DNA from: a phage
Direction: 5' to 3' (one strand)
DNA: 64,000 bases
Assembly (NCBI GenBank): GCA_017686895.1
Contig: GCA_017686895.1_4521.1
In this document: piece after piece, positions 7,234 through 58,046 of the stretch
Layout: every line of letters starts with the position of its first letter
How positions within the stretch are numbered: position 1 is the first letter of the stretch
The notes under the pieces: model-generated
Databases searched by the model: none
What the model was told of the DNA's origin: nothing
The model's input: only the letters and a program-made list of their open reading frames with translations
Translations under genes and position numbers: made by a program

Positions 7234-7263
7234 GTTTACAACAAGATAGGGCTATGTTATAGT
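7234..7263 (+). promoter_or_regulatory. early promoter inside a palindrome (approximate coordinates)
   Basis: GTTTAC, 18 bp spacer, TGTTATAGT; -10 flanked by ATAGGGCTA / TAGTCCTAT inverted repeat. Confidence 0.55.
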
Positions 7264-7291
7264 AGTCCTATCAAATTAAATGGAGACAACA

Positions 7292-7532
7292 ATGGTTTAT
7301 TACGAAAGTATCGGAACCGAAGTAGTTGCTAAAACTATTACTCGTGAAAAGTTTGCAAAGATATTCGATATGCGTTATAAAAAAATCTGAACACAAAGGC
7401 ATCCGATTCGAAGATGCGCACTGTACAATTTGCCCTTATAATGAAGACATAAACGGCACAATCGTTCCATTGGTAGAGGCTTCACATGACGACCTCTGGG
7501 ATGAATATAATATCGCATGTCGCGAAATTTAA
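7292..7532 (+). pseudogene. small Cys/His-containing protein gene interrupted by a frameshift at an A7 tract
   Basis: ATG 7292 with good RBS reads 31 codons into A7 run (7379..7385) then stops at 7388..7390; the +1 frame continues as track ORF 7326..7532 (SEHKGIRFEDAHCTICPYNEDINGT...). Confidence 0.4.
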
Positions 7533-7557
7533 GTAATCTAAATTCGAGGAAAATATT

Positions 7558-8514
7558 ATGATGTTAGTTATTGGTTCTCGTGCACTTCACTATCACGGTC
7601 TTATTGATTCTAGCGCTATCAAAAATAGTGATTGGGACTTTATTGCGGACCAATGTTCTTGGAATGCATTCAAAAATCAAATGATGGGTGTATATGTTCA
7701 CCAAGATAACCCTGGTGTCCAAGTTTTCAAATGTTTCCATAATGGACGCGAAACTCATTTTGAAGCATACATCGTTCCGGCTATCACTAACGTTCGCGAA
7801 CTAGTCGGTGAACTCACTCCTGAAGATTTCACGTCTTCTTATGACCTTTTAAAATACGCCAAGAAAAATTTGACTAAAGACCGTTTGAACGGGTTTTACT
7901 GGGCAACTCCTGAGATATGTCTTGCAATTAAGATGTCTCATCGTTTCAAGAAAAATAATCCATTCTTTTTAAAGACTATGAACCATATTCAGTATCTTCG
8001 TGGTAAAGGTGTTACACTGGACGATGAACTTACTGAAATTATGCTGAAACGCCAGAAAGAAACCTTGAACTATGCTCACCCAGTTCTTGACACTTCTAAA
8101 AGCGCATTCTTTAAAGATGACATCTATACGTATGACCATGATACTATTCACGAAGCCATTGCACTAACAGACCGTCCAGCGTATACATTTTATATGAAAG
8201 ATGGTTCTGAAGTCATGACCTCACGCGAGAAGTTCGAATCATTACCAGAAATGGTCAAATTAGCCGGCGTATACGAAGAATCATGTGTACTAGCGTTAGA
8301 ACGTTCTCAGATTCCTAATAACTTTGAAATCCATCCACGTGATAGTTTTATGATGGCATTAGAAAAAGTCTGTACTTCAATCACGTCAGGCTGGTTCCGT
8401 GAATACGCTTGGGAAAACTACAGCAAAGTTGTAAGTATGTACCAAAGCTTAGGACATGACGATTATGTAAAACGTTTTAAACAAAATTTCCATATGGTAA
8501 AACCTTTCAAATAA
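7558..8514 (+). CDS. hypothetical protein
   Basis: 318-aa ORF, ATG-ATG start after GAGGAAAA RBS; N-terminal IGSRALHYHG...DWDF weakly resembles a nucleotidyltransferase motif. Confidence 0.55.
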   Translation: MMLVIGSRALHYHGLIDSSAIKNSDWDFIADQCSWNAFKNQMMGVYVHQDNPGVQVFKCFHNGRETHFEAYIVPAITNVRELVGELTPEDFTSSYDLLKYAKKNLTKDRLNGFYWATPEICLAIKMSHRFKKNNPFFLKTMNHIQYLRGKGVTLDDELTEIMLKRQKETLNYAHPVLDTSKSAFFKDDIYTYDHDTIHEAIALTDRPAYTFYMKDGSEVMTSREKFESLPEMVKLAGVYEESCVLALERSQIPNNFEIHPRDSFMMALEKVCTSITSGWFREYAWENYSKVVSMYQSLGHDDYVKRFKQNFHMVKPFK

Positions 8515-8526
8515 TTTCGCAAAACT

Positions 8527-8556
8527 GTTTACACAATTATAGGACTATGTTATAGT
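8527..8556 (+). promoter_or_regulatory. early promoter inside a palindrome (approximate coordinates)
   Basis: GTTTAC, 18 bp, TGTTATAGT; flanked by ATAGGACTA / TAGTCCTAT. Confidence 0.55.
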
Positions 8557-8584
8557 AGTCCTATTAAAACATGAGGAGAATATT

Positions 8585-8890
8585 ATGAAATTAGGCGAAA
8601 CCAACCGAATTGGTCTTTTAACTATATTTGTATCACTTTTTTACGTAGCTCTTTCTGTTGCAGTATTACAAAAGGCTTACGATATGGATGGTGTTCCTGG
8701 TTTTGTATTCTTATCACCATTTTTATTATTCGTCGGGGCTTTGTTATTATATGCCACGACTAGTTTTGACCATAACGTCTGGGTTAATTATAAATGTAAA
8801 TTGTCTGAAGAAGAACACGCAGAAGCTCGTAAAAAAGCTATTGAATCTACCAATCTAGAAAATTTCATTAAAGAATGTCGAGGAAAATAA
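8585..8890 (+). CDS. small membrane protein with ENFIKECRGK tail
   Basis: Two hydrophobic segments; C-terminal LENFIKECRGK. Confidence 0.5.
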   Translation: MKLGETNRIGLLTIFVSLFYVALSVAVLQKAYDMDGVPGFVFLSPFLLFVGALLLYATTSFDHNVWVNYKCKLSEEEHAEARKKAIESTNLENFIKECRGK

Positions 8891-8891
8891 T

Positions 8892-9578
8892 ATGAATAGT
8901 TCTAAAGTGTTTAATAGTCAAGCTCGTGCAGTAGGTGGTTTTGCTCATAACGTACAAAATGACCAAATCAAAAATGAACCAATGTTCTTTAACTGTGATT
9001 TGAGTTTTGCTTGGGATAACGGCGGTCCTATTACTCGTAGCTTTATTGCCAATCTCCCAATTGATTGGACTAATCAACATGTTGTATTTGATTCTCGGGT
9101 TCATATGCTGATGCCTGGTTGGTATCCTGCTATTCCTGGATATCACCATGACGATGTTCCTCGCCCTGATATTCCAGTCGGCCAACACTTTATTACTGCA
9201 GGACAACCTGACTATGATAACCCTCGTTACCATTCTGAACATATTCTTGGTCTTGTTAACGCTGACGTGTGTCCTACTCATTTTGCAACAGGAACTGCAG
9301 AGTTCAGTCAGATTCCTGATGGCGAACTTATCTATCGCCAATGGCACAAAGAAGTCCTCGAAAAAATTGAAAAAGGTGAACTAGAGAAATGGGAAGCTCC
9401 AGACCGTACTCTTCTTCAGTTTGATTGGCAAACATGGCACACTGGTTCTCGTGCAATTAGTAATGGATGGCGTTGGTTCGGACGTGTATCTCGTAATACA
9501 GACCGAGTTAAAAAGATTACCAATGAAATTCGTGTCAATGCCCAAGTTTATCTGGAATTCCCTATGGAAGGCTGGTAA
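8892..9578 (+). CDS. putative Fe(II)/2-oxoglutarate-dependent oxygenase-like protein
   Basis: Candidate HxD (GYHHDD), distal His (WHTG) and RxS (RVS) in the spacing typical of the 2OG oxygenase fold; motif-level only. Confidence 0.4.
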   Translation: MNSSKVFNSQARAVGGFAHNVQNDQIKNEPMFFNCDLSFAWDNGGPITRSFIANLPIDWTNQHVVFDSRVHMLMPGWYPAIPGYHHDDVPRPDIPVGQHFITAGQPDYDNPRYHSEHILGLVNADVCPTHFATGTAEFSQIPDGELIYRQWHKEVLEKIEKGELEKWEAPDRTLLQFDWQTWHTGSRAISNGWRWFGRVSRNTDRVKKITNEIRVNAQVYLEFPMEGW

Positions 9579-10069
9579 TGATTAACAAAATATATTGGTC
9601 TAATATTGACGACGGCAATGAAGGTATTTCATACTATTCAGTAGATTGGACAGGATGTCCATCCTACTTAGTGAAACGTATTTGTCAAGAATTTAAAATC
9701 GACCAGCCAGCAGGTATTATCGTGAACAGATACATTAATGGATATCAACCTATCGATGAAGTAATACGAACAACTCAAGCTGATCTTGAAAAGTTTTTCA
9801 ATAAGTGTCAATGGATAACAGGATGGATTATATTTGTACCGTCGGTATGGTTTTTTAGTACTAAAGTAAGTGCCTTTGCCATACCAGATATTATCGCTAT
9901 CTTATTAGCATCTACTATCGTAAGTATTATTGGTGGTATTATTGGTGGAGGTACTATAGGCATCATTATTAATCTTGTTAAAAGTAGTTTACAGGAACGT
10001 AAAGACAAGATAAAGGCCAAGAATAATGAAGTTGAACGTTTTATTACCGAATGCAGGAATTTGAGATGA
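9578..10069 (+). CDS. membrane protein with ERFITECRNLR tail
   Basis: TAATG overlap start; Gly/Ile-rich TM segments; conserved tail. Confidence 0.5.
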   Translation: MINKIYWSNIDDGNEGISYYSVDWTGCPSYLVKRICQEFKIDQPAGIIVNRYINGYQPIDEVIRTTQADLEKFFNKCQWITGWIIFVPSVWFFSTKVSAFAIPDIIAILLASTIVSIIGGIIGGGTIGIIINLVKSSLQERKDKIKAKNNEVERFITECRNLR

Positions 10070-10302
10070 GTATAGCAATTTACATTAAATCAGAATCATG
10101 TGATAGTTATCTGTACACATATGATAAAGATGTGTCAGAAGAAAAAATCAAAGACGATCTTAATATGGACCTTGATTTGTTCAGTCCTATTGCAGATTAC
10201 AAACTTGCTGTCTCTAATAGTGAAAGTCCATCTAAAGAAACGCGTATTGAAGAATTTATGTCCGAATTAATGGCCAAATCATGGGACCGAGATGATGAGT
10301 AA
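10066..10302 (+). CDS. hypothetical acidic protein
   Basis: ATG 10066 overlapping upstream stop (ATGA). Confidence 0.45.
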   Translation: MSIAIYIKSESCDSYLYTYDKDVSEEKIKDDLNMDLDLFSPIADYKLAVSNSESPSKETRIEEFMSELMAKSWDRDDE

Positions 10303-10750
10303 GAAAAATAAAGTGAAAGAACTATCAGCCGGTATTATCTTCATGACAAAAGATAAAGAATTATTCATGGGTCGTGTAACTGGTTCTCGTCCTAAAGGTG
10401 CATTAGCTCATCGGTGGGATATTCCTAAAGGCCGTGTCGAACCTGGCGAATCTCCTATCGAAGCCGCTATTCGTGAATGCGAAGAAGAAACTGGGTTTAC
10501 ACAATATGACCCTGCCTTCCTGAAAGACCTAGGTGAACATCATTACTCAGACAATAAGAATATTCATCTGTTCCTATATACCATCCCTGTAGAGCACGAG
10601 CAATTCAGAAACAGTGTTTGTAATTCATATCATACATTCCCGGACGGACGACAGATTCCTGAATTTGATGCATTCGCTCTAATTAAACCTTCTCAATGGG
10701 AATATGTAATGGGCAAATCGTTATATAAGGTGCTCACTACCCTCCTATAA
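10292..10750 (+). CDS. nudE: Nudix hydrolase
   Basis: Nudix box GRVEPGESPIEAAIRECEEETGF; sits immediately upstream of lysozyme e. Confidence 0.85.
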   Translation: MMSKKNKVKELSAGIIFMTKDKELFMGRVTGSRPKGALAHRWDIPKGRVEPGESPIEAAIRECEEETGFTQYDPAFLKDLGEHHYSDNKNIHLFLYTIPVEHEQFRNSVCNSYHTFPDGRQIPEFDAFALIKPSQWEYVMGKSLYKVLTTLL

Positions 10751-10784
10751 GTAATAAATACCTCCTATAAACGTGGGAGGTATT

Positions 10785-11273
10785 ATGAATATATTTGAAA
10801 TGCTTCGTAATGACGAAGGTCTTAGACTGACTTTATACAAAGACACTGAAGGCTTTTGGACGATTGGTATAGGCCATTTAGTAACAAAGAACCCGTCTTT
10901 AGCCGTAGCTAAAGCTGAACTTGACAGAATGATCGGTCGTAAATGCAACGGTACAATTACCCTTGATGAGGCTGAAAAGCTATTTAATGAAGACGTTGAT
11001 AAAGCCGTTCGCGGAATCTTGGGTAATGCTAAACTTAAACCGGTATATGATTCTTTAGATGCGGTTCGTCGATGTGCATTGGTCAATATGGTCTTCCAAA
11101 TGGGTGTAGCAGGCGTTGCTGGTTTTACTAATTCTCTTCGTATGCTTCAACAGAAACGTTGGGATGAAGCGGCAGTAAATCTAGCTCAATCTAAATGGTA
11201 TCGTCAGACACCTAATCGCGCGAAACGCGTAATCTCAACATTTAAAACAGGAACTTGGAAAGCGTATATATGA
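10785..11273 (+). CDS. e: lysozyme (endolysin)
   Basis: [31 protein letters not shown]... nearly colinear with T4 lysozyme as I recall it; start at ATG 10785 after GGGAGG RBS. Confidence 0.95.
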
Positions 11274-11551
11274 AAACATATAGTGAATTTTTATCAGAAT
11301 CTATTCTTAACGAAGCTACTGACACATTTGCAACTAAGCTAGGTGCAGCTTTGGTTGAAGCTGAAAGTCTATTAGCACGTATTTCTGAACTTGCTAGTAA
11401 GATAGATATTCGCAAATTTGAACGTACCAGCGATATCGCTAAGCTTGAAGCCTTGTTGCGTATGTGCGATAAACCAGAGGAAATCGCTAAGAACGGCTCG
11501 CTGATGAAACAACGTCTTGAAAAATATATTTCAGGCGCTTCAGAAAAATAG
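11270..11551 (+). CDS. internal head protein (IP-like) with capsid-targeting leader
   Basis: Starts [10 protein letters not shown]; ATG overlaps lysozyme stop. Confidence 0.6.
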
Positions 11552-11609
11552 TGTTTACTTCCTCCAAGGGTTTTGATACTATACATTCATCAACTACTTG
11601 GAGGAAATT

Positions 11610-12023
11610 ATGACTCGTATCAATTTAACACTTGTTTCTGAACTGTCCGACCAACATCTTATGGCTGAGTATCGTGAATTACCACGCGTATTTGGTGCAG
11701 TCCGTAAACATGTTCAAAACGGTAAACGTGTAAAGGATTTTAAAATCTCTCCAACATTTATCTTAGGCACAGGTCACGTAACATTCTTTTACGACAAACT
11801 CGAATTTTTACGTTTACGTCAAATCGAGCTAATCGCTGAATGTTTGAAACGTGGTTTCAAAATCAAGGACACGACAGTCCAGGATATTTCCGACATCCCT
11901 GCCGAATTTCGTAATAATTATGTCCCGTCCGAAGCGTCCATTGCGATAAGTCAAGCACGCTTAGATGAAAAAATTGCTCAACGTCCGACTTGGTACAAAT
12001 ACTATGGTAAATCAATTTACTAA
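11610..12023 (+). CDS. denV: endonuclease V (pyrimidine-dimer DNA glycosylase)
   Basis: [34 protein letters not shown]... matches T4 EndoV along its length. Confidence 0.95.
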
Positions 12024-12030
12024 GGAAAAA

Positions 12031-12360
12031 ATGAAAACATATCAAGAGTTTATCACTGAAGTTACATTATCTGCGGAACAGAAAGCTGCTATCGAAGAAA
12101 GTAAAAATCCCAAAGTAACATATAAAGTAAATAGTAAAGGCGTTTTTGATGGCTTGGTTCAAGACCCTGAATTGAAAAAAGCTCTTTCTAAAACTAATGC
12201 GTACTTTGCTCCTAAATTTAACACAGCAGGTGTACTTATTGGATTGGATGTATTCAACTCTAAAGGTGTTCTATCTAATGCCTTTGGCTATGCCGCTAAC
12301 AAAATTACCAAAGCCGCATGGGAATCCAATACCAAACAAGCTCAAAAGCCTAGAGTATAA
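12031..12360 (+). CDS. internal head protein (IP-like) with capsid-targeting leader
   Basis: Starts MKTYQEFITE, the same leader as T4 IPII/IPIII. Confidence 0.6.
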   Translation: MKTYQEFITEVTLSAEQKAAIEESKNPKVTYKVNSKGVFDGLVQDPELKKALSKTNAYFAPKFNTAGVLIGLDVFNSKGVLSNAFGYAANKITKAAWESNTKQAQKPRV

Positions 12361-12532
12361 TTCTTGTCTAATAAAGGGAAACGCAACCTCTCCTTATGAA
12401 CGTCGAGTCCTCTGAGTGATGTACCTTTTCCAACCTGTAATAAGGTCGAGCGCAATGCGGTAATGGGTTTACATAGCGAGTCGAAGGACCTAACATGTGC
12501 CACGGAATGGCCCAAACCTTAAGAGAAATAAT

Positions 12533-13072
12533 ATGAGAACATTTTTAACTGGACCTTATCTATCCCTGATGAATGCTTTTACACACCATTCTGATGCTAG
12601 AGTAGAAGAAATTTGTAAGAACGGTTATATCCCACCATTTGAAGACGTACTCAAGCAGTACTGTACACTTCGTTTAGACGGCGGCAGACAATCAGGTAAA
12701 TCAATTGCTGTGACTAACTTTGCTGCTAATTGGCTGTATGATGGTGGAACAGTTATTGTTCTTTCTAATACTTCAGCTTATGCTAAAATTTCTGCTGGTA
12801 ACATTGAAAAAGAATTTTCTCGTTATTCTAGCGATGATATTCGATTCCGTTTGTTTACTGATTCTGTTCGTAGTTTTATTGGCAATGAAGGTTATAAATT
12901 CCGTGGATTAACGCTTTCTCGTATTCTGTATATAATTGACGAGCCTATTAAAGCTCCTGATATGGATAAGATTTACGACATCCATATTAAAACAGTCCAA
13001 CACTGTTGCAAAAGCAAATATTGCATCGGCGGTAATGCTCGTCCTCAATTTTTTGTGATTGGAATGCAATGA
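12533..13072 (+). CDS. hypothetical P-loop protein
   Basis: Walker A-like DGGRQSGKS; start at ATG 12533 after AGAGAAATAAT. Confidence 0.45.
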   Translation: MRTFLTGPYLSLMNAFTHHSDARVEEICKNGYIPPFEDVLKQYCTLRLDGGRQSGKSIAVTNFAANWLYDGGTVIVLSNTSAYAKISAGNIEKEFSRYSSDDIRFRLFTDSVRSFIGNEGYKFRGLTLSRILYIIDEPIKAPDMDKIYDIHIKTVQHCCKSKYCIGGNARPQFFVIGMQ

Positions 13073-13377
13073 TGACCGATATTGAAGTTTTTGAGTATTG
13101 TTATAACAGCCCAGTATGCAATAAAAGGGCCCTTGTAGAAAATTACGAGATTTACCATTTTAAACCTAAACGATATCGTTTGACTAAAGGTCCGTTCGCA
13201 GGGCAGCAAGTTCTTTGTACTGCTCCTAATGCACGGTTGATGACTAGTATTCCGCATTTCAAAATGGAATTTATTGATGGGCCATTTAAGGGATTAATCA
13301 CTCAAAGTTTAATGGCGTTTAATTCCGACCCATTTTTGATTAAAGAACAATCCTGGATAAATTTATTTTCTAATTGA
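13069..13377 (+). CDS. hypothetical protein
   Basis: 102-aa ORF overlapping upstream stop. Confidence 0.45.
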   Translation: MMTDIEVFEYCYNSPVCNKRALVENYEIYHFKPKRYRLTKGPFAGQQVLCTAPNARLMTSIPHFKMEFIDGPFKGLITQSLMAFNSDPFLIKEQSWINLFSN

Positions 13378-13383
13378 GGTTAT

Positions 13384-13746
13384 ATGAAAGCATATCAAAT
13401 TCTTGAAGGCACACACAAAGGCACTATTTATTTTGAAGACGGTACTCAAGCCCGGATTATTGTCTCTAAGACTTTTAAAGAAGACGCTATTGTAGACCCG
13501 GAAATTTTCTACGGTTTGAATGCCCGTGAAATTGAAATTGAACATCAACCTAAAGTTAAAATTGAAGGTGGTCAACACCTGAACGTTAATGTTCTGCGTC
13601 GTGAAACTCTGGAAGATGCAGTTAAGCATCCAGAAAAATATCCGCAGTTGACCATCCGTGTATCCGGTTATGCAGTTCGCTTTAACTCTCTGACTCCGGA
13701 ACAACAGCGCGACGTTATCGCTCGTACCTTTACTGAGAGTCTATAA
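13384..13746 (+). CDS. grcA: autonomous glycyl-radical cofactor (GrcA/YfiD-like)
   Basis: C-terminal ~60 aa ([60 protein letters not shown]) carry the RVSGY glycyl-radical motif and look near-identical to E. coli GrcA as I recall it. Confidence 0.85.
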
Positions 13747-13970
13747 TGGCTAAATTGATTATAGAAGGGTCTGAAGATGTTTTAAAATGTTTTGCCGCCT
13801 GGTTTAGTTGCTCAGGCGAGCAATCATTCATTGAAGCATTTAGAATGGGTGATATTACTGGAAACTATCCGGCAACTGATATCACTGTACGTGGATATGG
13901 TATTAATGAGCCTATCCAATTGGTCGAATATGACCTTGCCACCGATGAGGAAATTCCTTATGTCGATTGA
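13746..13970 (+). CDS. hypothetical protein
   Basis: 74-aa ORF, TAATG overlap start. Confidence 0.4.
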   Translation: MAKLIIEGSEDVLKCFAAWFSCSGEQSFIEAFRMGDITGNYPATDITVRGYGINEPIQLVEYDLATDEEIPYVD

Positions 13971-14226
13971 AGATATTAAAGGCTACAAGCCACATACCGA
14001 CGATAAAATCGGTAAAGTGAACGCTATTAAAGATGCAGAAGTCCGTCTTGGATTGTTGTTTGATGCTCTGATTGAAGAAGCATATATCTTGAAAGAAAAT
14101 GAAACAGAGCAACAAACCAAAGAAGATATGGATGCAGTACAGGCTCTTAAGTATGCTAAGCAACATCTAAAAGAAGCCAGCATGTGGGCCTGTCGTGCAG
14201 TATTTCGACCTGAGGAAAAATACTAA
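13960..14226 (+). CDS. hypothetical protein
   Basis: Internal ATG (MSIEDIKGY...) of track ORF 13792..14226, overlapping upstream stop. Confidence 0.4.
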
Positions 14227-14525
14227 TGGCTCAAATCCTATCAGGCTTTGGAACTCATTATGAAGCATCTAGACGCATAACTGAAAGCAATCCTTTTGGC
14301 CTTGTTCCGAAGCACAAGAAAATTCAAAGCCTTGATGACTTTGAGAACCGCCTATGGGCCCTCTTTAATGAGTACAAGGCATATCTGAAAGAAGACGCTG
14401 ACGATTGTCTTGAAGAAGATGAGATTGCGTATTACGAACAACGCCTTGAACAGCTCAAGAACTTCCATCAGGTTCGTGACGAAGTATCTAAAGCAGTTAA
14501 AAAGTTAATTCCTTTCAAAGAGTAG
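14226..14525 (+). CDS. hypothetical protein
   Basis: 99-aa acidic ORF, TAATG overlap. Confidence 0.45.
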
Positions 14526-14553
14526 TTTACTTCTCCTCTAGTTGTGTTACTAT
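14525..14553 (+). promoter_or_regulatory. early promoter inside a 12-bp perfect palindrome (approximate coordinates)
   Basis: GTTTAC, 17 bp, TGTTACTAT; CTCCTCTAGTTG ... CAACTAGAGGAG inverted repeat whose right arm contains the regB RBS GAGGAG. Confidence 0.55.
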
Positions 14554-14581
14554 AGTCTTGTCAACTAGAGGAGAAATCAAA

Positions 14582-15040: not shown

Positions 15041-15048
15041 AGGTAAAC

Positions 15049-16777: not shown

Positions 16778-16786
16778 GGGACTCTT

Positions 16787-17368: not shown

Positions 17369-17371
17369 ATA
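17364..17371 (+). promoter_or_regulatory. late promoter core TATAAATA
   Basis: Exact T4 late-promoter octamer about 25 bp upstream of the ORF at 17396. Confidence 0.5.
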
Positions 17372-17395
17372 CTAATATCTAACCAAGAGGTATAT

Positions 17396-49289: not shown

Positions 49290-49335
49290 TAATTTAAGTA
49301 AGACCTGCAAAAACCATCGCATCAATTAACGCGAG

Positions 49336-50741: not shown

Positions 50742-50764
50742 GCTTTATGAATTGAGTATATAAT
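50742..50764 (+). promoter_or_regulatory. candidate middle promoter (approximate coordinates)
   Basis: GCTTTA box, 11 bp, TATAAT, about 20 bp upstream of ATG 50784. Confidence 0.4.
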
Positions 50765-50783
50765 AAATTGTATTGAGGTAAAT

Positions 50784-51500
50784 ATGGGAAAACATAACAC
50801 AATGAAATATATCAAAGCCGCAGATTTTCAAACCGCATTTAAAGCAGTCAATCGTGAAATTTTAGAAAACCCCGAATTCGTAACTGATTCTCGTATTGGA
50901 CGTTGTAATGAAATTGGGTCTATGACAGTAGTTGTTGACACTCCATCATCATTCAAAATGACCGACCCACGTATTAACCGCATCTCTTATGAATATGCCG
51001 AAGACTTCTGGAAGTTTATGATTTCTGGTGGTACCAACGCAGAAGAAGCGTTTAAGGCATATCCTAATGTCGCTAAATTTATTTCTAAACCAAAATCAGA
51101 TGTTTTGCCGGCGAACTTCAACACTTTCTATGGTCCTCGCATTGCGGCCCAATTACCAACTCTTCTAAAAGAACTTAAAGAAAAACCTAACTCTCGAAGA
51201 GTTGTGTTCCAAATTCTAGAAAGTTCTGATCAGGCTTTGCTTGATTCGGACGAAACACTTGAATATCCATGTACTGACTCAGTAACTTATTATATTCGTG
51301 ATGGTAAGCTTTATACCCACTGTCATATGCGTTCTCAGAACTGTGCTGTTGTTATGCAGTTGGATTTTTATCTCCAAGGAAAATTACTTCATTATATCGC
51401 TAACGAATGCGGTGTAGAAGTTGGTGATTATACTCATACCATGGTAAGTGCCCATGTGTTTGAACGTGATTTTGATTATGTTAAAGGATTCCTTGACTAA
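50784..51500 (+). CDS. 42: thymidylate-synthase-fold pyrimidine hydroxymethylase (dCMP hydroxymethylase-like, divergent)
   Basis: PNSRRVVFQI, catalytic-Cys region YPCTDSVTYYIRDGKLYTHCHMRSQN and VSAHVFERDF align to the PDSRRGIMIY / MCTNTVQYLIRD..NMRSND / GSLHVYSRHF blocks of T4 gp42 as I recall them. Confidence 0.65.
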   Translation: MGKHNTMKYIKAADFQTAFKAVNREILENPEFVTDSRIGRCNEIGSMTVVVDTPSSFKMTDPRINRISYEYAEDFWKFMISGGTNAEEAFKAYPNVAKFISKPKSDVLPANFNTFYGPRIAAQLPTLLKELKEKPNSRRVVFQILESSDQALLDSDETLEYPCTDSVTYYIRDGKLYTHCHMRSQNCAVVMQLDFYLQGKLLHYIANECGVEVGDYTHTMVSAHVFERDFDYVKGFLD

Positions 51501-52399
51501 TGGCTATTTTCCGCGTACCAATCTTGAGTATGCGGTCTTATGAAACTGGACAGTATGCTATCCTTAAGGATGGCAACTTCCAACTTCATTTGCACCGTGC
51601 TAATCCAGGTGATGTGATTACATATCCACGTAATGCATCTGATATTAAAGAATGCGAACGTCTTTTCCCAGAATTTAAGTTTGTTCCATTATGGTATAAA
51701 GATAACGCGTATAACACTCGTAAATATTTCTGGTCTGAAAATGAATTTGTGGTTGATTCATTAATTGCTTATTATGATTGTGATTTTCTAATCACAGATA
51801 TCACCGGATATGACGGCGCTTTTGATGTGGAATTCAATTTCAATATCACTGCAGACCCTAATAAACCACGTTTTTATATTGACGAATTCTTAAAAACTGA
51901 TATGTTGTCGGTTAATCGTTCACTTCAAACTACTGTGTTGAATGAACGTCAAAAAGAAGTGCTGGTTAACGCAGGTGCAGATGGTAATAAGATTATCGTA
52001 ACGCAGAAAGTTATACGTCCTTCCATCATGCAGCGTCTTGTAGGTGATTTGGCTCCTATTCATCTAGATGGTATTTTTCATCCATTTCGAATTAGTGACC
52101 CGTGCTATCGTTTTGAACAAGTGGTTGAATGTGCAATTCAATTAGGCCAACCGCTTTATATAACCGATCCAAATAATAGCTTCGACAGAAATAAGTATCC
52201 TGAAGAAGCATTGATTCGAATTTTTAAACCAACTAAAACTGAGTACTATCAAATTCTTAAAGGACGTCCGAAGATTCAATATTTCGAAAATCCTGAAGAA
52301 GTATTCCATCCAGGTCTTGGTGAGTTCATCTACTTTAATGCTTTAATTTCTTCGCCGTATAATATACCTAAATATGAAGATGTCGTAATCGAGGAATAA
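51500..52399 (+). CDS. hypothetical protein at the beta-gt position
   Basis: 299-aa ORF with no recognised motif; TAATG overlap with hydroxymethylase; occupies the slot of T4 beta-glucosyltransferase. Confidence 0.3.
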   Translation: MAIFRVPILSMRSYETGQYAILKDGNFQLHLHRANPGDVITYPRNASDIKECERLFPEFKFVPLWYKDNAYNTRKYFWSENEFVVDSLIAYYDCDFLITDITGYDGAFDVEFNFNITADPNKPRFYIDEFLKTDMLSVNRSLQTTVLNERQKEVLVNAGADGNKIIVTQKVIRPSIMQRLVGDLAPIHLDGIFHPFRISDPCYRFEQVVECAIQLGQPLYITDPNNSFDRNKYPEEALIRIFKPTKTEYYQILKGRPKIQYFENPEEVFHPGLGEFIYFNALISSPYNIPKYEDVVIEE

Positions 52400-52400
52400 A

Positions 52401-52949
52401 ATGGCTAAAATTATTTTAGTAGATGGCCCGGATAATGCTGGTAAAACAACTTTCATTAATGACATAATGGAAATTAGTGAAAGATATGTAAAGATTGATT
52501 TCCCTAAACGAACAGTTGATGGACGTTTCGATGTTAAGTCTCGAAATGAAGTTGGCTGTTTCGAAACTATGTTGAATTATTTAGACCCTACTAAGATTTA
52601 TCTATTAGACCGTGGATATATTAGTAACTGGGTTTATGGACGTATTCGACAAGATGCGGACTCGGTTCTTGACGTTTATGAACAGGATTATGTTCGTCTT
52701 TGCCAAAACCATGATGTGTTCACAATTATTTTAACACGTAACGAAATGACTGAAAGTTTTGAAGACGACCTTATTACTTTGTCTTCATTCGGTTTTAATA
52801 CAGTAATTTCACATTTTGAAGAGTTTGCAATTCATAACGAAATCCAAACGTATCAATTACTTAATCATGATGGTGCTAACAAAGTTATAGGATTTAATGC
52901 AAGCGAACGTAATAATTTGATTACAGAAATCATCAAATGGGCTCGTTAA
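52401..52949 (+). CDS. thymidylate-kinase-like P-loop nucleotide kinase
   Basis: Walker A ILVDGPDNAGKTT and DRGYISNWVYG (Tmk DR-Y-like motif). Confidence 0.6.
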   Translation: MAKIILVDGPDNAGKTTFINDIMEISERYVKIDFPKRTVDGRFDVKSRNEVGCFETMLNYLDPTKIYLLDRGYISNWVYGRIRQDADSVLDVYEQDYVRLCQNHDVFTIILTRNEMTESFEDDLITLSSFGFNTVISHFEEFAIHNEIQTYQLLNHDGANKVIGFNASERNNLITEIIKWAR

Positions 52950-53047
52950 GAGCCATTTAAAGTTTTAAATGCTGTATAACCCTTAGTATATAATCATCTT
53001 ATCTTTTAAACATGAGTAAAATATAATGATGCCTATGGAAAAATACA

Positions 53048-54220
53048 ATGTCTGATTTAAAATCTCGTCTGATTAAAGCTTCTACTTCTAAAATGACTGC
53101 AGACTTGACTAAGTCTAAGCTGTTTAATAATCGTGATGAAGTCCCTACTCGTATTCCAATGTTGAATATTGCACTAGGTGGTGCACTGAATGCAGGGTTG
53201 CAATCAGGCTTAACTATTTTTGCTGCTCCTTCTAAACATTTTAAAACGTTGTTTGGGCTGACCATGGTTGCAGCATATATGAAGAAATATAAAGATGCAA
53301 TCTGTTTGTTTTATGACTCAGAATTCGGTGCTTCAGAATCTTACTTCCGTTCGATGGGTGTTGATTTAGACCGTGTAGTTCATACTCCGATTCAATCCGT
53401 CGAACAACTTAAAGTTGATATGACTAATCAGCTTGACGCGATTGAACGCGGCGATAAAGTTATTATCTTTATCGATTCAATCGGTAATACTGCATCTAAG
53501 AAAGAAACCGAAGATGCGTTGAACGAGAAAGTTGTAGGTGATATGTCTCGTGCTAAGGCACTTAAATCTCTTTTCCGTATTGTGACTCCTTATCTGACTA
53601 TTAAAGATATTCCGTGTGTTGCAATTAACCATACTGCAATGGAAATTGGCGGATTGTATCCTAAAGAGATTATGGGCGGTGGTACAGGTATTCTTTATTC
53701 CGCCAACACGGTATTTTTTATCTCTAAACGTCAGGTTAAAGAAGGTACAGAATTGACCGGTTATGACTTCACGTTGAAAGCAGAAAAATCTCGTACAGTT
53801 AAAGAGAAATCTACTTTCCCGATCACGGTTAATTTCGACGGTGGTATCGACCCATTCAGTGGCTTGTTAGAAATGGCAACTGAAATCGGTTTTGTGGTTA
53901 AGCCTAAAGCTGGTTGGTATGCTCGCGAATTCCTTGACGAAGAAACAGGTGAAATGATTCGTGAAGAAAAATCATGGCGTGCTAAAGCTACTGATTGTGT
54001 AGAATTCTGGGGACCTTTGTTTAAACATAAGCCTTTCCGTGACGCAATTGAAACTAAATATAAACTAGGTGCTATCTCTTCTATTAAAGAAGTTGATGAC
54101 GCTGTTAACGACCTTATTAATTGCAAAGCAACAACTAAAGTTCCGGTTAAAACTTCTAATGCTCCGTCTGCAGCAGATATAGAAAACGACCTTGACGAAA
54201 TGGAAGATTTCGATGAATAA
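53048..54220 (+). CDS. uvsX: RecA-like recombinase UvsX
   Basis: MSDLKSRLIKASTSKMTADLTKSKLFNN ... Walker A and L1/L2 regions; 390 aa, colinear with T4 UvsX. Confidence 0.97.
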   Translation: MSDLKSRLIKASTSKMTADLTKSKLFNNRDEVPTRIPMLNIALGGALNAGLQSGLTIFAAPSKHFKTLFGLTMVAAYMKKYKDAICLFYDSEFGASESYFRSMGVDLDRVVHTPIQSVEQLKVDMTNQLDAIERGDKVIIFIDSIGNTASKKETEDALNEKVVGDMSRAKALKSLFRIVTPYLTIKDIPCVAINHTAMEIGGLYPKEIMGGGTGILYSANTVFFISKRQVKEGTELTGYDFTLKAEKSRTVKEKSTFPITVNFDGGIDPFSGLLEMATEIGFVVKPKAGWYAREFLDEETGEMIREEKSWRAKATDCVEFWGPLFKHKPFRDAIETKYKLGAISSIKEVDDAVNDLINCKATTKVPVKTSNAPSAADIENDLDEMEDFDE

Positions 54221-54554
54221 TCTCGATGATTTAAATCTAGAAATCGTTGATGAATCCCCTTCTTCGGAAGGGGAGGACATTCGCAAAGAACGAGTGTTTA
54301 ATGAATCTCTTAAAATTATCCGTTCAGCAATGGAAAATGTCATTCAAGAGATTCTGATTACACTTGAAGACGGTTCCCATCATATAGTCTATATTACAAA
54401 ACTAGACTGGGTTGATGGTAAAATCGTAATGGACTTTGCAGTTCTTGACCAGGACAGAAAAGCAGAACTTGCACCACACGTTGAAAAATGTGTTACAATG
54501 CAAGTACAACAAGCTTTTAATGAACGAACCAAGAAAAAATTTAAATTCTTTTAA
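54213..54554 (+). CDS. 40: head vertex assembly chaperone gp40 (by synteny)
   Basis: ATG 54213 overlapping uvsX end; lies between uvsX and 41 as in T4. Confidence 0.7.
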   Translation: MNNLDDLNLEIVDESPSSEGEDIRKERVFNESLKIIRSAMENVIQEILITLEDGSHHIVYITKLDWVDGKIVMDFAVLDQDRKAELAPHVEKCVTMQVQQAFNERTKKKFKFF

Positions 54555-54563
54555 GGAGTTATC

Positions 54564-56006
54564 GTGGTAGAAATTATTTTGTCTCATCTAGTATACGACC
54601 AGGCTTATTTTTCTAAGGTCTGGCCTTATATGGATTCTGACTATTTTGAGCGTGGACCGGCAAAAAATGTCTTTAAAATTATAAAGAGCCACGTTAACGA
54701 ATATAATGCAATGCCATCTATCAATGCGTTAAAGGTGGCTTTAGATAACAGTTCTTTAACTGAAGCCGAATATAAAGGAACTTCAGACCTAATTGAAAAA
54801 TTGGCTGATACTCCTGAAGACCATGAATGGTTGGTTAAAGAAACTGAGAAATATATCCAGCAAAAAGCGATGTATAATGCTACATCCAAAATCATTGAGA
54901 TTCAGTCTAATGCTGAACTACCTCCGGAACAACGTAACAAGAAAATGCCTGACGTAGGAGCTATTCCTGATATTATGCGTCAAGCACTTTCAATTTCGTT
55001 CGATAGTTATGTTGGGCATGACTGGATGGAAGACTATGAAGCACGTTGGCTTTCTTATCTAAATAAAGCACGTAAGGTCCCGTTCAAATTAAACATTTTG
55101 AATAAAATCACCAAAGGCGGCGCAGAAACAGGTACACTAAACGTTTTAATGGCTGGTGTTAACGTCGGTAAATCTTTAGGCCTTTGTTCACTTGCTGCAG
55201 ATTATCTTCAAACAGGTCATAATGTTCTTTATATTTCCATGGAAATGGCTGAAGAAGTTTGTGCTAAGCGTATAGATGCAAACATGCTTGACGTATCACT
55301 CGATGATATCGATGATGGTAACATATCTTATGCTGAATATAAAGCCAAGATGGAAAAATGGCGTTCAAAAACAACATTAGGACGTTTAGTAGTTAAACAG
55401 TATCCTACTGGCGGAGCTAATGCTAATACATTCCGTGCATTGCTTAATGAGTTAAAACTTAAGAAGAACTTTGTGCCATCTGTAATCATGGTTGATTACT
55501 TAGGTATTTGTGGGTCTTGTCGTATCAGAGTTTACACTGAAAATAGCTACACATTAGTTAAAGCTATCGCAGAAGAACTTCGTGCATTAGCAGTAGAATC
55601 TGAAACAGTTCTATGGACTGCAGCTCAAGTAGGACGTGCAGCATGGGATGCTTCAGACATGAACATGAGTGATATCGCAGAATCAGCAGGTTTACCAGCA
55701 ACGGCAGATTTCATGTTGGCTGTAATTGAAACCGAAGAACTTGCACAAGCTGAACAACAACTTATCAAACAAATCAAATCACGATACGGCGATAAGAATA
55801 AGTGGAATAAATTCCTGATGGGTGTACGTAAAGGCAATCAGAAATGGGTTGAGATTGAGCAAGAAGGCATGAACACACCTAACACAGTAAATGAAAACGC
55901 AGGTGCTCAGATGCGTCAGGCAGAGGTGAATCGTACGGAACGCGTAGGTAAAGCCAAAGCAACACGTGCTGACCTAGATAGCTTAGCCAATGAGTTAAAA
56001 TTTTAA
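54564..56006 (+). CDS. 41: replicative DNA helicase gp41
   Basis: GTG start after AAGGAG RBS; VEIILSHLVYDQAYFSKVWPYMDS ... Walker A GVNVGKS; 480 aa. Confidence 0.95.
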   Translation: MVEIILSHLVYDQAYFSKVWPYMDSDYFERGPAKNVFKIIKSHVNEYNAMPSINALKVALDNSSLTEAEYKGTSDLIEKLADTPEDHEWLVKETEKYIQQKAMYNATSKIIEIQSNAELPPEQRNKKMPDVGAIPDIMRQALSISFDSYVGHDWMEDYEARWLSYLNKARKVPFKLNILNKITKGGAETGTLNVLMAGVNVGKSLGLCSLAADYLQTGHNVLYISMEMAEEVCAKRIDANMLDVSLDDIDDGNISYAEYKAKMEKWRSKTTLGRLVVKQYPTGGANANTFRALLNELKLKKNFVPSVIMVDYLGICGSCRIRVYTENSYTLVKAIAEELRALAVESETVLWTAAQVGRAAWDASDMNMSDIAESAGLPATADFMLAVIETEELAQAEQQLIKQIKSRYGDKNKWNKFLMGVRKGNQKWVEIEQEGMNTPNTVNENAGAQMRQAEVNRTERVGKAKATRADLDSLANELKF

Positions 56007-56012
56007 TAAAAA

Positions 56013-56031
56013 GGAGACTTCGGTCTCCTTT
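56013..56031 (+). terminator. intrinsic terminator
   Basis: GGAGAC-TTCG-GTCTCC then TTT. Confidence 0.65.
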
Positions 56032-56035
56032 CGGG

Positions 56036-56065
56036 GTTTACATCTTCCTCTAGGCATGATATGAT
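56036..56065 (+). promoter_or_regulatory. early promoter (approximate coordinates)
   Basis: GTTTAC, 18 bp, TGATATGAT. Confidence 0.5.
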
Positions 56066-56094
56066 GTACTTACACAAACCAAGAGGAAAACATT

Positions 56095-56469
56095 ATGAAT
56101 ATGTCTCAAGCAATTTTTACTGCAATCACCGAAAACACAACTGTTGAAGTAGTTTCTCCGCTGGCAACCTACGTTATTCTTGCTCCTAAAACTATTGTAT
56201 CTCGTATGGAAAACACAGGCAAACGTATCGTACAAATAGTTGGAGCTGGAAATCAAAAACTTGATTATCTACGAACCATCAAAGCTTACGAACATTTCCA
56301 ACTCGAAAAAGGTTCTCCTATCCAGGTAGAACTCGTAAATGGTGATATCGTTCGAGCAATGTTCCATCATTTCTATGCATTGAATGACCCATCTAAAGCG
56401 GTTCGTTTAATTGCATATGACGCAAACCAAAACGAAATCAACGCAGATATATCTAAATTACATTTTTAA
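56095..56469 (+). CDS. hypothetical protein
   Basis: 124-aa ORF after AGAGGAAAA RBS. Confidence 0.5.
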   Translation: MNMSQAIFTAITENTTVEVVSPLATYVILAPKTIVSRMENTGKRIVQIVGAGNQKLDYLRTIKAYEHFQLEKGSPIQVELVNGDIVRAMFHHFYALNDPSKAVRLIAYDANQNEINADISKLHF

Positions 56470-56498
56470 GTTTACTTCTCCAGTAGTTGTGTTATTAT
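56470..56498 (+). promoter_or_regulatory. early promoter inside a 12-bp perfect palindrome (approximate coordinates)
   Basis: GTTTAC, 17 bp, TGTTATTAT; CTCCAGTAGTTG ... CAACTACTGGAG inverted repeat with RBS in the right arm. Confidence 0.55.
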
Positions 56499-56524
56499 AG
56501 ACCTATCAACTACTGGAGAACAAA

Positions 56525-56842
56525 ATGAAAACCATCGATTGTAAAGCAGAATTTAAGATTTTTTATCACGGTTCAAGTAGTTCAGCTAACATCGAAAACA
56601 TGCTTTGTCCTCCTGAAGAAACAGGAGTTCTGTCTGAAACTGGACGTAAGAAAAACTTGGATCGTGTATTCTTTACTGAAGATATCGGTTTAGCAAAGAT
56701 TTATGCAGGACGAGCAGCACGCTCTTATGGAGGTGAACCACGTCTCTATCGAGTAATTTCTCCGGTAGATGTAGTTCAAATGAATGATACTAAAGGCGCT
56801 ACAGTTTATCACGCTGAATGGGCATTTTGCGAGGAAATATGA
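56525..56842 (+). CDS. hypothetical protein
   Basis: 105-aa ORF. Confidence 0.5.
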   Translation: MKTIDCKAEFKIFYHGSSSSANIENMLCPPEETGVLSETGRKKNLDRVFFTEDIGLAKIYAGRAARSYGGEPRLYRVISPVDVVQMNDTKGATVYHAEWAFCEEI

Positions 56843-57030
56843 GCAAATTAACTAAAGTTACTTTTATCGGTTGGTTTAAAAGCGGTGAGATGTTCACTAA
56901 AGATATCATGTTATCAGGTGATCGCGAAGAAATCGAGTGGGTTACGGTACAACTTGCTGAAGTGAACAATGCATTAGTTAAAGCATTTATTAATGACGAG
57001 AAAGTTTTTGAAGCTGATTTCAGAGGATAA
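56839..57030 (+). CDS. hypothetical protein
   Basis: ATGA overlap start within track ORF 56818..57030. Confidence 0.45.
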   Translation: MSKLTKVTFIGWFKSGEMFTKDIMLSGDREEIEWVTVQLAEVNNALVKAFINDEKVFEADFRG

Positions 57031-57031
57031 T

Positions 57032-57244
57032 ATGTATTCAACTGTGTTTAAACCATCAACATACGAATTTGCATCAACTACACAATGGAAAGCTCTTATT
57101 CTGGAAGGATGGGAACTAATGATGGACTGCGAAGCATCTGAAAAGTTTCCACACGGCAAAGTGGACTTCGTTAAATTTGCTGTACGTCCGACTAAACGAC
57201 AGATTCGTCAAGAAAAACGCAAATTTCGAAAAAGTTTAAAATAG
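57032..57244 (+). CDS. small basic protein with VRPTKRQIR tail
   Basis: ATG 57032 within track ORF 56993..57244; tail resembles the ORF at 27988. Confidence 0.45.
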   Translation: MYSTVFKPSTYEFASTTQWKALILEGWELMMDCEASEKFPHGKVDFVKFAVRPTKRQIRQEKRKFRKSLK

Positions 57245-57246
57245 CT

Positions 57247-57276
57247 GTTTACAAGCACCACATACTGTGTTACTAT
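57247..57276 (+). promoter_or_regulatory. early promoter (approximate coordinates)
   Basis: GTTTAC, 18 bp, TGTTACTAT. Confidence 0.5.
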
Positions 57277-57304
57277 CTTTCTATCAACTACAGAGGAAAT
57301 TGAA

Positions 57305-57673
57305 ATGAAAAAATTAATCGCTTTAGCAATGGTATTTGGATTAACCGGATGTGGTGCCCATGGCTTTATCCCTAATAACGTCGGCCAATTGATTTACAAT
57401 CCGAATGTTAAACAGTACGACCAACCTAAAGTTGAAGTGGAAGACCCGGTTACTGTAGGTAATCGAATGATTCAAGCTGATGCCCATGCTCAACGTTATC
57501 GTGACTCTGATACCGTAGCATTGTCAAAAGAACAACGCGTTAAAGAACATTGTCTACAGGCTACTGAAATCGCATTCATTCGCTATGTTGAAACAACTGG
57601 TAAAGAGCCTACCCAGAAACAAATCGCGAATAACTACGTCCAGTGTATTGAACGTTTAAACAAATTTAATTAA
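57305..57673 (+). CDS. lipoprotein
   Basis: Signal peptide with lipobox LTGC (MKKLIALAMVFGLTGCGA). Confidence 0.55.
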   Translation: MKKLIALAMVFGLTGCGAHGFIPNNVGQLIYNPNVKQYDQPKVEVEDPVTVGNRMIQADAHAQRYRDSDTVALSKEQRVKEHCLQATEIAFIRYVETTGKEPTQKQIANNYVQCIERLNKFN

Positions 57674-57676
57674 TTG

Positions 57677-57706
57677 GTTTACACCAAAGTTAAAATAAGA
57701 TACTAT
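57677..57706 (+). promoter_or_regulatory. early promoter (approximate coordinates)
   Basis: GTTTAC, 18 bp, TACTAT. Confidence 0.5.
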
Positions 57707-57734
57707 AAACATAACAAATCAAGAGGAAATTAAC

Positions 57735-57983
57735 ATGGAATTATTCGTAGCTAGTTCAGTAGCAGTTTTAATCGCAGGTATTGGTTCAATCATCATTTAC
57801 ATGTTGCCTTGGGTAATCGCACTTATTCGTGGCACAAAAAGCACAACAGCAATCTTCTTTGTATCTTTACTCTTTAACTGGACGATGGTTGGTTGGATTG
57901 GAACTTTAATTTGGTCTATCGTTGCCGAAAAGAAATCTGCTCAGCAGCCTCAACAAGTAATTATTATTCGCGAAAAAGAATAA
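57735..57983 (+). CDS. superinfection immunity (Imm)-family membrane protein
   Basis: YMLPWVIALIRG ... FNWTMVGWIGTLIWSIV resembles the Imm family pattern as I recall it; two TM helices. Confidence 0.5.
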   Translation: MELFVASSVAVLIAGIGSIIIYMLPWVIALIRGTKSTTAIFFVSLLFNWTMVGWIGTLIWSIVAEKKSAQQPQQVIIIREKE

Positions 57984-58046
57984 ACTTGTTTACATTATAG
58001 ATGGACTATAGTATAGTAGTCCTATCAAATTAACTAAGGAGTTAAA

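Follow-up and report, generated by a model that had tools for sequence, protein, structure and literature searches.

The stretch of phage DNA analysed here (the window: 64,000 nucleotides, contig GCA_017686895.1_4521.1 of assembly GCA_017686895.1) carries many short early promoter cassettes, and in a number of these an inverted repeat brackets the −10 element. The left arm of the repeat would lie upstream of the transcription start site (TSS) of the cassette and the right arm downstream of it. At which level, DNA or RNA, could such a split palindrome act? The initial annotation had argued that only the right arm is transcribed and that the structure therefore acts at the DNA level. This is true only for transcripts that start at the cassette's own promoter. 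A transcript that starts further upstream and reads through the cassette would carry both arms, and because such read-through transcripts were ignored, the conclusion of a DNA-level action is unsupported.

We suggest that the palindromes act in read-through RNA rather than on the DNA, which is the better explanation and in our view a fairly probable one. More specifically, we propose that a hairpin which sequesters the Shine–Dalgarno (SD) sequence and is split by an early promoter is a conserved device of the T-even phages at regB, denV, and some other immediate-early genes. Only the gene's own short transcript would be translated, and the GGAG of polycistronic read-through RNA would be inaccessible to both ribosomes and RegB. 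This arrangement would have been kept although the arms exist in about ten unrelated sequences and the geometry takes two to three forms, the anti-SD sequence being located in the spacer or in the discriminator. To this specific proposal we give an even chance.

Early promoter cassettes

Judged by its sequence the window is DNA of a T4-like coliphage; a 10-kb slice shows 97–98% identity with published genomes of Tequatrovirus, such as those of Escherichia phage CCU7 and Shigella phage Shf125875. Each cassette is a compact module of ∼60 bp consisting of an A-rich upstream region, the −35 element GTTTAC, a spacer of 16–18 nt, the extended −10 element TGnTAnnnT, a leader of ∼23 nt, the SD sequence, and the ATG. 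The distance from the −10 element to the ATG is 29–32 nt in nearly all cassettes. The T4 early promoter consensus is composed of an UP element, the −35 element GTTTAC, TGn, and the −10 element (Hinton 2010, PMC2988021; Nolan 2006, PMC1524935). The cassettes share the −35 element, the extended −10 element, and the A-rich upstream region with it, and the promoter at 14526 in front of regB corresponds to the one termed “a typical early promoter” in the review of Uzan and Miller (PMC3014915). Thus the assignment to the T4-type early promoters made in the initial annotation is borne out.

The initial annotation had reported more than 20 regions with GTTTAC and TGnTATnnT. The motif search which it had proposed was run on the window and finds 11 matches of the literal pattern GTTTAC-N11–15-TGNTATNNT, all on the + strand, against 0.08 expected. 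The number rises to 17 for GTTTAC with TGnTAnnnT, when TACTAT or TAAGAT is permitted as −10 element, and to ∼23, again all on the + strand, once GTGTAC, ATGTAC, or a missing TG is tolerated; the earlier count therefore holds on the relaxed definition only. Further cassettes lie beyond the range covered by the initial annotation (3433, 4427, 61871, and 63340). Only the T4-specific consensus is enriched, as a generic sigma-70 promoter scan of the window gave 70 sites compared with 65 in shuffled sequences. The A+T content of the 30 nt upstream of the cassettes is mildly raised (71% compared with 63% for the window), and no Rfam family was found at any cassette.

The cassettes are T4-type immediate-early promoter modules of a published class, the promoter early stem–loops (PeSLs). 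In RB49 and phi1 a PeSL comprises an AT-rich region, a sigma-70 promoter, a stem–loop, an SD sequence, and an ATG, and a role as terminator or attenuator was proposed (Arbiol 2010, PMC2839356). The position of the stem–loop varies in these phages and is mostly between the promoter boxes or overlapping the −10 element (PMC2839356). The class was also described in the T4/PST pair (Comeau 2014, PMC4122927). Thus the resemblance to the PeSLs of RB49-like phages seen in the initial annotation is real, and the class extends past these phages to T4 and PST (PMC4122927). The window cassettes have the same module order, with sigma-70-type −35 and −10 elements at proper spacing and with the SD sequence and start codon closing the 3′ end; they lie in hyperplastic regions beside small variable open reading frames (ORFs), and indels between close relatives occur at them. 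A stable stem–loop lies in or beside the promoter, though about half of the cassettes are stemless. In addition, the PST/T4 consensus TTTACW-N17-TAYWAT with the stem AGNA-loop-TCNT matches the ATAGGACTA...TAGTCCTAT family of the window (PMC4122927).

There are also differences. The two PeSL papers see a terminator or attenuator and describe no pairing with the SD sequence (PMC2839356, PMC4122927), and in the legend of the PST figure the stems are said to directly precede the promoter (PMC4122927), whereas the longest hairpins of the window (regB, denV, and 56471) span the −10 element and the TSS, have loops of 17–28 nt, and contain the SD sequence as their right arm. Taken by itself the finding of the initial annotation is a re-discovery of the T4 early promoters and of the PeSL class in one more Tequatrovirus, and it adds little because both are published, T4 and PST included. 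The useful correction concerns the place where the palindromes act, for which the comparative evidence favors read-through RNA over DNA.

Inverted repeats and predicted masking of the SD sequence

Each spacer was paired with its own downstream region, and shuffled spacers (500 trials) served as the null. Perfect helices with 7 or more base pairs are formed in 8 of 22 cassettes, compared with a mean of 0.57 and a maximum of 3 in the shuffles. With a stem of at least 8 bp required and the loop limited to 35 nt, 70 perfect hairpins are found in the window (39.7 ± 6.3 in shuffles). Seven of these are located in the ∼2% of the sequence taken by cassettes, and the two longest, of 14 bp each, are both in cassettes. 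In related loci (see below) 46% of 156 non-redundant cassettes have a helix score of at least 7, against 9% for the null.

Two types of palindromes can be distinguished. In type A an anti-SD sequence (CTCC or CCTC) just past the −35 element pairs with the SD sequence 30–45 nt downstream; clear cases are 11554 (denV), 14526 (regB), and 56471, and weaker ones 17970, 32409, 56037, and 63340. Anti-SD tetramers are present in 7 of 21 spacers, compared with 7% in the background. In type B a tight stem surrounds the −10 element and stops short of the SD sequence. The clear cases of type A are:

14525..14584, + strand: regB early promoter cassette; −35 element GTTTAC at 14525–14530, TGT and TACTAT at 14545–14553, predicted TSS at ∼14560, ATG at 14582.
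14531–14544 and 14562–14575, + strand: arms of the regB cassette, left TTCTCCTCTAGTTG and right CAACTAGAGGAGAA; 14 bp, with the SD motif GGAG within the right arm.
56470..56527, + strand: cassette 56471, before an ORF of 105 amino acids at 56525; left arm TTCTCCAGTAGTTG at 56476–56489, right arm CAACTACTGGAGAA at 56507–56520 with the SD sequence inside; fold z = −5.04.
11553..11612, + strand: denV early promoter cassette; left arm TTCCTCCAAG at 11559–11568, right arm CTTGGAGGAA at 11597–11606 with the SD sequence inside; ATG at 11610.

All sequences and coordinates cited in the initial annotation were found again, exactly or 2–3 nt off. Its description of the inverted repeats as 8–12 bp long is correct as to their presence, but the pair at regB is longer. 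Likewise, the right arm includes the ribosome binding site in ∼5–7 cassettes, which is a minority, and the ATAGGACTA/TAGTCCTAT type leaves this site untouched.

According to the consensus geometry the TSS is predicted ∼7 nt past the −10 element, which in the regB cassette and in 56471 is 1–3 nt ahead of the right arm. We compared the predicted probability that the SD sequence is unpaired in the read-through RNA, in the RNA starting at the cassette's own TSS, and in a control with shuffled upstream sequence. For regB, where the RNA folds with −22.9 kcal/mol (z = −3.75), this probability is 0.00 in the read-through RNA, but 0.65 when the RNA starts at its own TSS and 0.38 when the upstream sequence is shuffled. 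The read-through value is also 0.00 at 11554 and 56471, and at all three cassettes it is below all 40 shuffled-upstream controls. The arms of cassette 56471 differ from those of regB by three compensatory base-pair changes. By prediction the SD sequence is thus paired in upstream-started transcripts at these three window cassettes and in 28 denV leaders (see below), but not at most other cassettes.

A promoter that splits a hairpin around the ribosome binding site is known from T4. In genes e, soc, 49, and I-TevI the SD sequence and/or the AUG is in a helix of upstream-started transcripts only, and a late promoter between the arms gives rise to a translatable RNA (PMC3014915). The logic is the same as proposed here, and the case of gene e lies in the window and serves as an internal positive control for the masking of the SD sequence:

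10757..10787, + strand: leader hairpin of gene e (lysozyme), AATACCTCC-tataaacgtg-GGAGGTATT followed by the ATG; the hairpin itself occupies 10757–10784, with late-promoter-like TATAA motifs before and within the loop (TATAAA in the loop).

In contrast to the cassettes, the documented T4 cases have late (gp55) promoters, and their translation is delayed to late infection. The internal promoters of the cassettes are sigma-70 early promoters (GTTTAC/TGn/−10), and gene e is the sole late-type case in the window. Because the internal promoter is immediate-early, the predicted timing is the opposite, with translation in the burst of the early promoter only.

Co-variation of the arms in related phages

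With RegB as the anchor we obtained 43 loci from IMG/VR with flanks of up to 10 kb on each side, in which RegB is 40–99% identical. Only 2 loci were obtained when gp61 was used as an additional anchor. Co-variation was assessed by comparing the duplex energy of matched arms with that of arms combined across lineages, using a permutation p-value. This comparison took the place of a column-based covariation analysis of the regB promoters aligned with MAFFT, which was dropped because the helices are out of register between lineages.

At the regB promoter the helix between spacer and SD sequence is kept in 21 of 23 distinct sequences and the arms vary by lineage, with −16.2 kcal/mol for matched and −10.4 kcal/mol for cross-lineage arms (p ≤ 1e-4). 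The 43 loci contain roughly 10 unrelated arm sequences, among them the pairs CTCTAGTTG/CAACTAGAG, CTCTTTATG/CATAAAGAG, CTGTAAG/CTTACAG, CTTTTAGT/ACTAAAAG, CTCATTTG/CAAATGAG, and CTCTTG/CAAGAG; the arms of T4 are CTCTTGACTG/CAGTTAAGAG, two G–U pairs included. Co-variation is also found at denV (p ≤ 1e-4), at a small ORF (p = 0.001), and at an nrdC.8-like gene (p = 0.002). The arms thus compensate each other across related genomes at regB, denV, and two more promoters, a point on which the initial annotation had made its reading depend. In the most distant RegB loci (L017:9900–9960 and L044–L046; 40–43% identity) a strong intrinsic terminator, GGGCTC...GAGCCCATTTT, is located just before the regB promoter, and these regB promoters have no embedded palindrome.

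In denV the SD sequence is predicted to be paired in the read-through RNA only in 28 of 28 distinct leaders, with a mean unpaired probability of 0.02 in the read-through RNA, compared with 0.43 for RNA from the own TSS and 0.33 after shuffling of the upstream sequence. The position of the anti-SD sequence is not the same in all lineages. In loci L028, L032, and L037–L042 the anti-SD sequence GTCCTCC follows directly after the −10 element, that is, in the discriminator and outside the spacer, and at the promoters L028:7288, L032:6826, L037:7962, and L040:7423 GTCCTCC or GTCTTCC forms a short leader hairpin with GGAGGAC. The −10 element is then outside the loop, yet the predicted TSS is still between the arms. 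Because the anti-SD sequence shifts to the discriminator and the pairing is kept, the conserved feature is the pairing of the SD sequence split by the TSS and not the location of the −10 element in a loop.

These data bear on the view that the palindromes are a non-functional by-product, generated and held perfect by templated quasi-palindrome correction or by gene conversion between cassette copies in the recombination-dependent replication of T4, and spread by duplication of the cassettes. T4 rIIB is the classical case of mutations templated by quasi-palindromes. In addition, many copies are paralogous repeats (families D1–D4), the stems are mostly perfect, and the wobble asymmetry of 7 vs. 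5 or 7 vs. 3 described below is not significant. Nevertheless, the arms of orthologous promoters are unrelated across lineages and still complementary, the SD sequence is a preferred pairing partner, and palindromes occur where an upstream terminator is lacking (see below). A by-product is therefore very unlikely in our opinion.

Read-through RNA or DNA

Within 7000–26900 no cassette hairpin has a T-run behind it or was classed as terminator-like, and few terminators on the + strand are found between the cassettes, which makes read-through plausible. If the palindromes act in read-through RNA, an upstream terminator should matter. We compared non-redundant cassettes that have an intrinsic-terminator-like hairpin within 160 nt upstream with the rest. 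The terminator-preceded cassettes have a mean helix score of 5.5, compared with 5.3 for the null, and 17–20% of them score at least 7. Without an upstream terminator the mean is 7.1, and 46–48% score at least 7 (Mann–Whitney p = 0.004; 0.013 without the most distant loci). The helices behind terminators are thus at chance level, which a DNA-level role would not predict, and this argues for a role in read-through RNA.

The depletion behind terminators fits equally well with redundancy, if the hairpins were purely terminators or attenuators of upstream transcription, the function proposed for the PeSLs, and took no part in translation or RegB cleavage. The stem–loop of the RB49/phi1-type PeSL211/210 lowered the expression of lacZ to the same extent as rrnB T1 did (PMC2839356). 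However, the tested RB49 stem–loops have stems of G-runs and C-runs, unlike those of the window. The hairpins that contain the SD sequence have AT-rich stems, loops of 17–28 nt, and A-rich sequence after them, and the hairpins at 7000–26900 lack a T-run and are not terminator-like. A pure terminator would also leave unexplained that the right arm is frequently the SD sequence and that the pairing with the SD sequence in denV is kept across three geometries. We consider this explanation unlikely.

The palindromes could instead be DNA-level elements, namely a cruciform or a hairpin of single-stranded DNA which regulates the promoter or serves as the recombination site by which the cassettes move. 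Most stems are perfect palindromes of which both strands fold equally, and neither a significant excess of G–U over A–C mismatches nor a difference in energy between sense and antisense strand is seen. Breakpoints relative to close relatives fall within cassettes, mini-circle crossovers were mapped in PeSLs, one of them within the stem–loop (Arbiol 2010, PMC2839356), and the mechanism of T4 early promoter shut-off is still unknown (PMC2988021). On the contrary, the chance level of the helices behind upstream terminators is not predicted by a DNA role, and the premise overlooks read-through transcripts. In denV the left arm can be located in the discriminator instead of the spacer with the SD pairing kept, so that the −10 element is not always looped, and anti-SD motifs are specifically enriched in the spacers. 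The many unrelated arm families are unlike the target of a sequence-specific dimeric DNA-binding protein, and a repressor site of this kind was rejected for this reason. Recombination between cassettes, finally, requires repeated homology only and no palindrome. Thus an action at the DNA level appears distinctly unlikely to us.

Several results nevertheless weigh against the role in read-through RNA which we prefer. Masking of the SD sequence beyond the shuffled-upstream control is restricted to 3 of 21 window cassettes (11554, 14526, and 56471). Over the whole window the mean unpaired probability is 0.30 in the read-through RNA, 0.53 from the own TSS, and 0.35 with shuffled upstream sequence (p = 0.08, not significant), and because the shuffled control already gives 0.35 the general drop is mostly a length effect. 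The type B hairpins do not mask the SD sequence. An excess of G–U over A–C mismatches is the expected mark of a structure in sense-strand RNA; early sets gave 19 vs. 4 (non-identical cassettes, 16 loci) and 6 vs. 1 (de-duplicated, promoter-constrained positions excluded), but in the 43 loci the numbers are 7 vs. 5 (85% non-redundant) and 7 vs. 3 (75%) and not significant. In 69 non-redundant cassettes no difference between the folding energies of the sense and the antisense strand is seen (p = 0.12–0.33), and most stems are perfect Watson–Crick palindromes, equally compatible with an origin at the DNA level. The co-variation p-values treat kindred sequences as independent; as they ignore phylogenetic relatedness, the count of unrelated arm families is the sturdier evidence. 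Finally, we infer the positions of the TSS, the read-through RNA, and the consequences for translation and for RegB.

Proposed mechanism and relation to RegB

Our proposal is as follows. The transcript of the cassette's own promoter would contain only the right arm, because the left arm is upstream of the predicted TSS, and its SD sequence would be free. In an upstream-started read-through transcript both arms would be present and would form the hairpin. Where the SD sequence is the right arm, that is, in regB, denV, the ORF at 56525, and the nrdC.8-like gene in T4, the hairpin should limit translation to promoter-proximal (immediate-early) transcripts and would probably limit RegB cleavage at GGAG likewise. 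The type B hairpins (ATAGGACTA/TAGTCCTAT) may attenuate transcription or may act as 3′ stabilizer after cleavage downstream; the support for a function of type B consists of the co-variation and the dependence on upstream terminators.

The target of RegB and S1 is GGAG followed by an A-rich tract in the SD sequences of early genes (PMC3014915, PMC1702504), and cassette SD sequences such as GGAGAACAAAATG and GGAGAAATCAAAATG are similar to it. RegB cuts the SD sequence of its own mRNA, and secondary structure protects GGAG (PMC3014915); that a hairpin embedded in the promoter may be the shield is our suggestion. If the SD sequence is masked as proposed, the products of regB and denV would be made only during the first minutes of infection, the RegB resistance of some GGAG sites would have a clear reason, and a trick known from T4 late genes would extend to immediate-early genes.

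The reviews on early promoters note “additional regions of consensus” (PMC2988021, PMC1524935). They ascribe this extra conservation to contacts with the RNA polymerase, and inverted repeats or pairing with the SD sequence are unmentioned (PMC2988021, PMC1524935). No anti-SD sequence in the spacer or discriminator of an early promoter is described in the PeSL papers and the T4 reviews (PMC3014915, PMC2988021, PMC1524935), though it may be in print elsewhere.

Cassettes as probable sites of recombination

The largest direct-repeat families of the window are cassettes, and their halves are shared in mosaic fashion. The initial annotation had noted one core from −10 element to ribosome binding site combined with different left arms at 22589 and 56489; in fact the 29-nt sequence TGTTATTATAGACCTATCAACTACTGGAG is identical at 22589 and 56490. 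When the window was compared with L002, L003, and L019, three relatives that are nearly identical to it, homology breakpoints were seen inside cassettes at 8538, 14521, 18438, and 57224, and a breakpoint at 6346 abuts a promoter-like TTTAC. The intervals from −30 to +60 around the cassettes make up ∼4% of the sequence compared, and four to five of ∼14 breakpoints fall into them, although this sample is small and breakpoints at gene boundaries are to be expected anyway. The 290-bp ORF at 14232–14520 is replaced by unrelated sequence in L002 and L003, the replacement ending 5 nt ahead of the −35 element of regB, and in L010 and L011 the divergence starts immediately upstream of this element. Repeated homology of ∼60 bp at gene boundaries would make the cassettes junctions for homologous recombination. 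The modular shuffling proposed in the initial annotation fits with these data, and mini-circle formation has been shown for PeSLs (PMC2839356).

Another repeat (family D7) is a box at the 5′ end of coding regions, ATGAAAACATAT..GAATTTTT (MKTY.EF), present at 2113, 2703, 11270, and 12031. By its sequence the box looks like a capsid-targeting N-terminus of internal-protein genes. A breakpoint relative to L002 and L003 (12015–12061) is within the copy at 12031.

Further cassettes

Members of type B include the ATAGGACTA/TAGTCCTAT cassettes at 7235, 8528, 18419, and 57989, AGGTCTAT/ATAGACCT at 22570, and GAGAGCA/TGCTCTC at 4427:

8527..8587, + strand: cassette whose −10 element is tightly enclosed by a palindrome; ATAGGACTA at 8539–8547 pairs with TAGTCCTAT at 8556–8564; SD sequence outside, fold z = −3.0, no effect on the SD sequence.
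7234..7294, + strand: paralogous cassette (family D1); GATAGGGCTA at 7245–7254 pairs with TAGTCCTATC at 7263–7272, one G–T pair.
18418..18478, + strand: paralogous cassette; TTGGTAGGACTA at 18427–18438 pairs with TAGTCCTATCAA at 18447–18458, one G–T pair; contains the L002 breakpoint at 18438, and the T4 ortholog has an unrelated 14-bp palindrome.
57988..58049, + strand: paralogous cassette whose palindrome is degraded to 6 bp, GGACTA/TAGTCC.
22569..22627, + strand: cassette sharing the 29-nt core from −10 element to SD sequence with 56471, with another left arm; AGGTCTAT at 22576–22583 pairs with ATAGACCT at 22596–22603; fold z = −4.47; a predicted outer helix with U–G pairs extends to the SD sequence.
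4426..4499, + strand: cassette with GAGAGCA/TGCTCTC around the −10 element (family D18).

The sequences 4433–4474 and 33841–33882 are a paralogous pair with 93% identity in which GAGAGC/GCTCTC corresponds to GAGAGA/TCTCTC, one compensatory change from C–G to A–T. The remaining cassettes are:

17969..18027, + strand: cassette in which TTCTCC/GGAGAA form a short anti-SD helix of 6 bp (families D5 and D8); a terminator-like hairpin is just upstream (17929–17962).
32408..32467, + strand: cassette whose anti-SD helix, TCCTCGATAG/CTATAGAGGA, is made imperfect by one G–A mismatch.
56036..56097, + strand: cassette with a weak anti-SD helix, TTCCTCT/AGAGGAA, after a terminator-like UUCG hairpin at 56010–56031; fold z = 0.09.
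33537..33598, + strand: variant early cassette with −35 element ATGTAC; ACGATAGGA at 33542–33550 pairs with TCCTATCGT at 33567–33575 around the −10 element.
3432..63397 (envelope), + strand: other cassettes with a weak palindrome or none; TTTAC starts at 3433, 20812, 21093, 24211, 25231, 26211, 27910, 57248, 57678, 61871, and 63340.

Many cassettes here and in T4 have a recurrent, conserved element CTATCAACTAC in the 5′ leader around the predicted TSS, for example, at 3468–3480, 11589–11596, 22604–22615, and 57283–57294.

Palindromes that bracket a −10 element in the absence of GTTTAC are located at 39354–39378, 59664–59696, and 34557–34591, two of them with a MotA-box-like element (GCTTTA/TGCTTTA) upstream; the one at 59664–59696 adjoins the primase gene 61 on its upstream side. 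From their sequences the sites at 39354–39378 and 59664–59696 look like middle promoters and may be middle-promoter analogues of the early cassettes.

Neighboring hairpins and genome organization

Two families of hairpins are found near gene ends. A terminator-like hairpin TAGCCCC...GGGGCTTTTTT (family D5) is present at 2039–2072, 2584–2617, 3271–3304, and 17929–17962; two copies follow internal-protein-like genes, and one is just before the cassette at 17970. Perfect hairpins of 8–9 bp with a TTCG (UUCG) tetraloop at gene ends (36087–36106, 43571–43590, 54255–54274, 56010–56031, and 61834–61855) are probably terminators or RNA stabilizers. The cassettes at 56037 and 61871, directly 3′ of such hairpins, have a weak palindrome or none.

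The window has the gene order of T4 as the reverse complement of the T4 map, and therefore nearly all genes are on the + strand. The order along the window is two tRNA genes, e, denV, regB, tk, the nrdC region, 43, uvsX, 41, and 61. The cassettes are distributed over 3.4–33.6 kb and 56–63.4 kb, and none is found in the core replication block at ∼34–56 kb. The two tRNA genes at 1209–1365 (Met-CAT and Arg-TCT) compare with a cluster of eight in T4. The interval between the helicase gene 41 and the primase gene 61 (56006–59718) measures 3.7 kb, compared with 1.6 kb in T4 (dmd to 61.1), and contains about nine small ORFs and five early cassettes.

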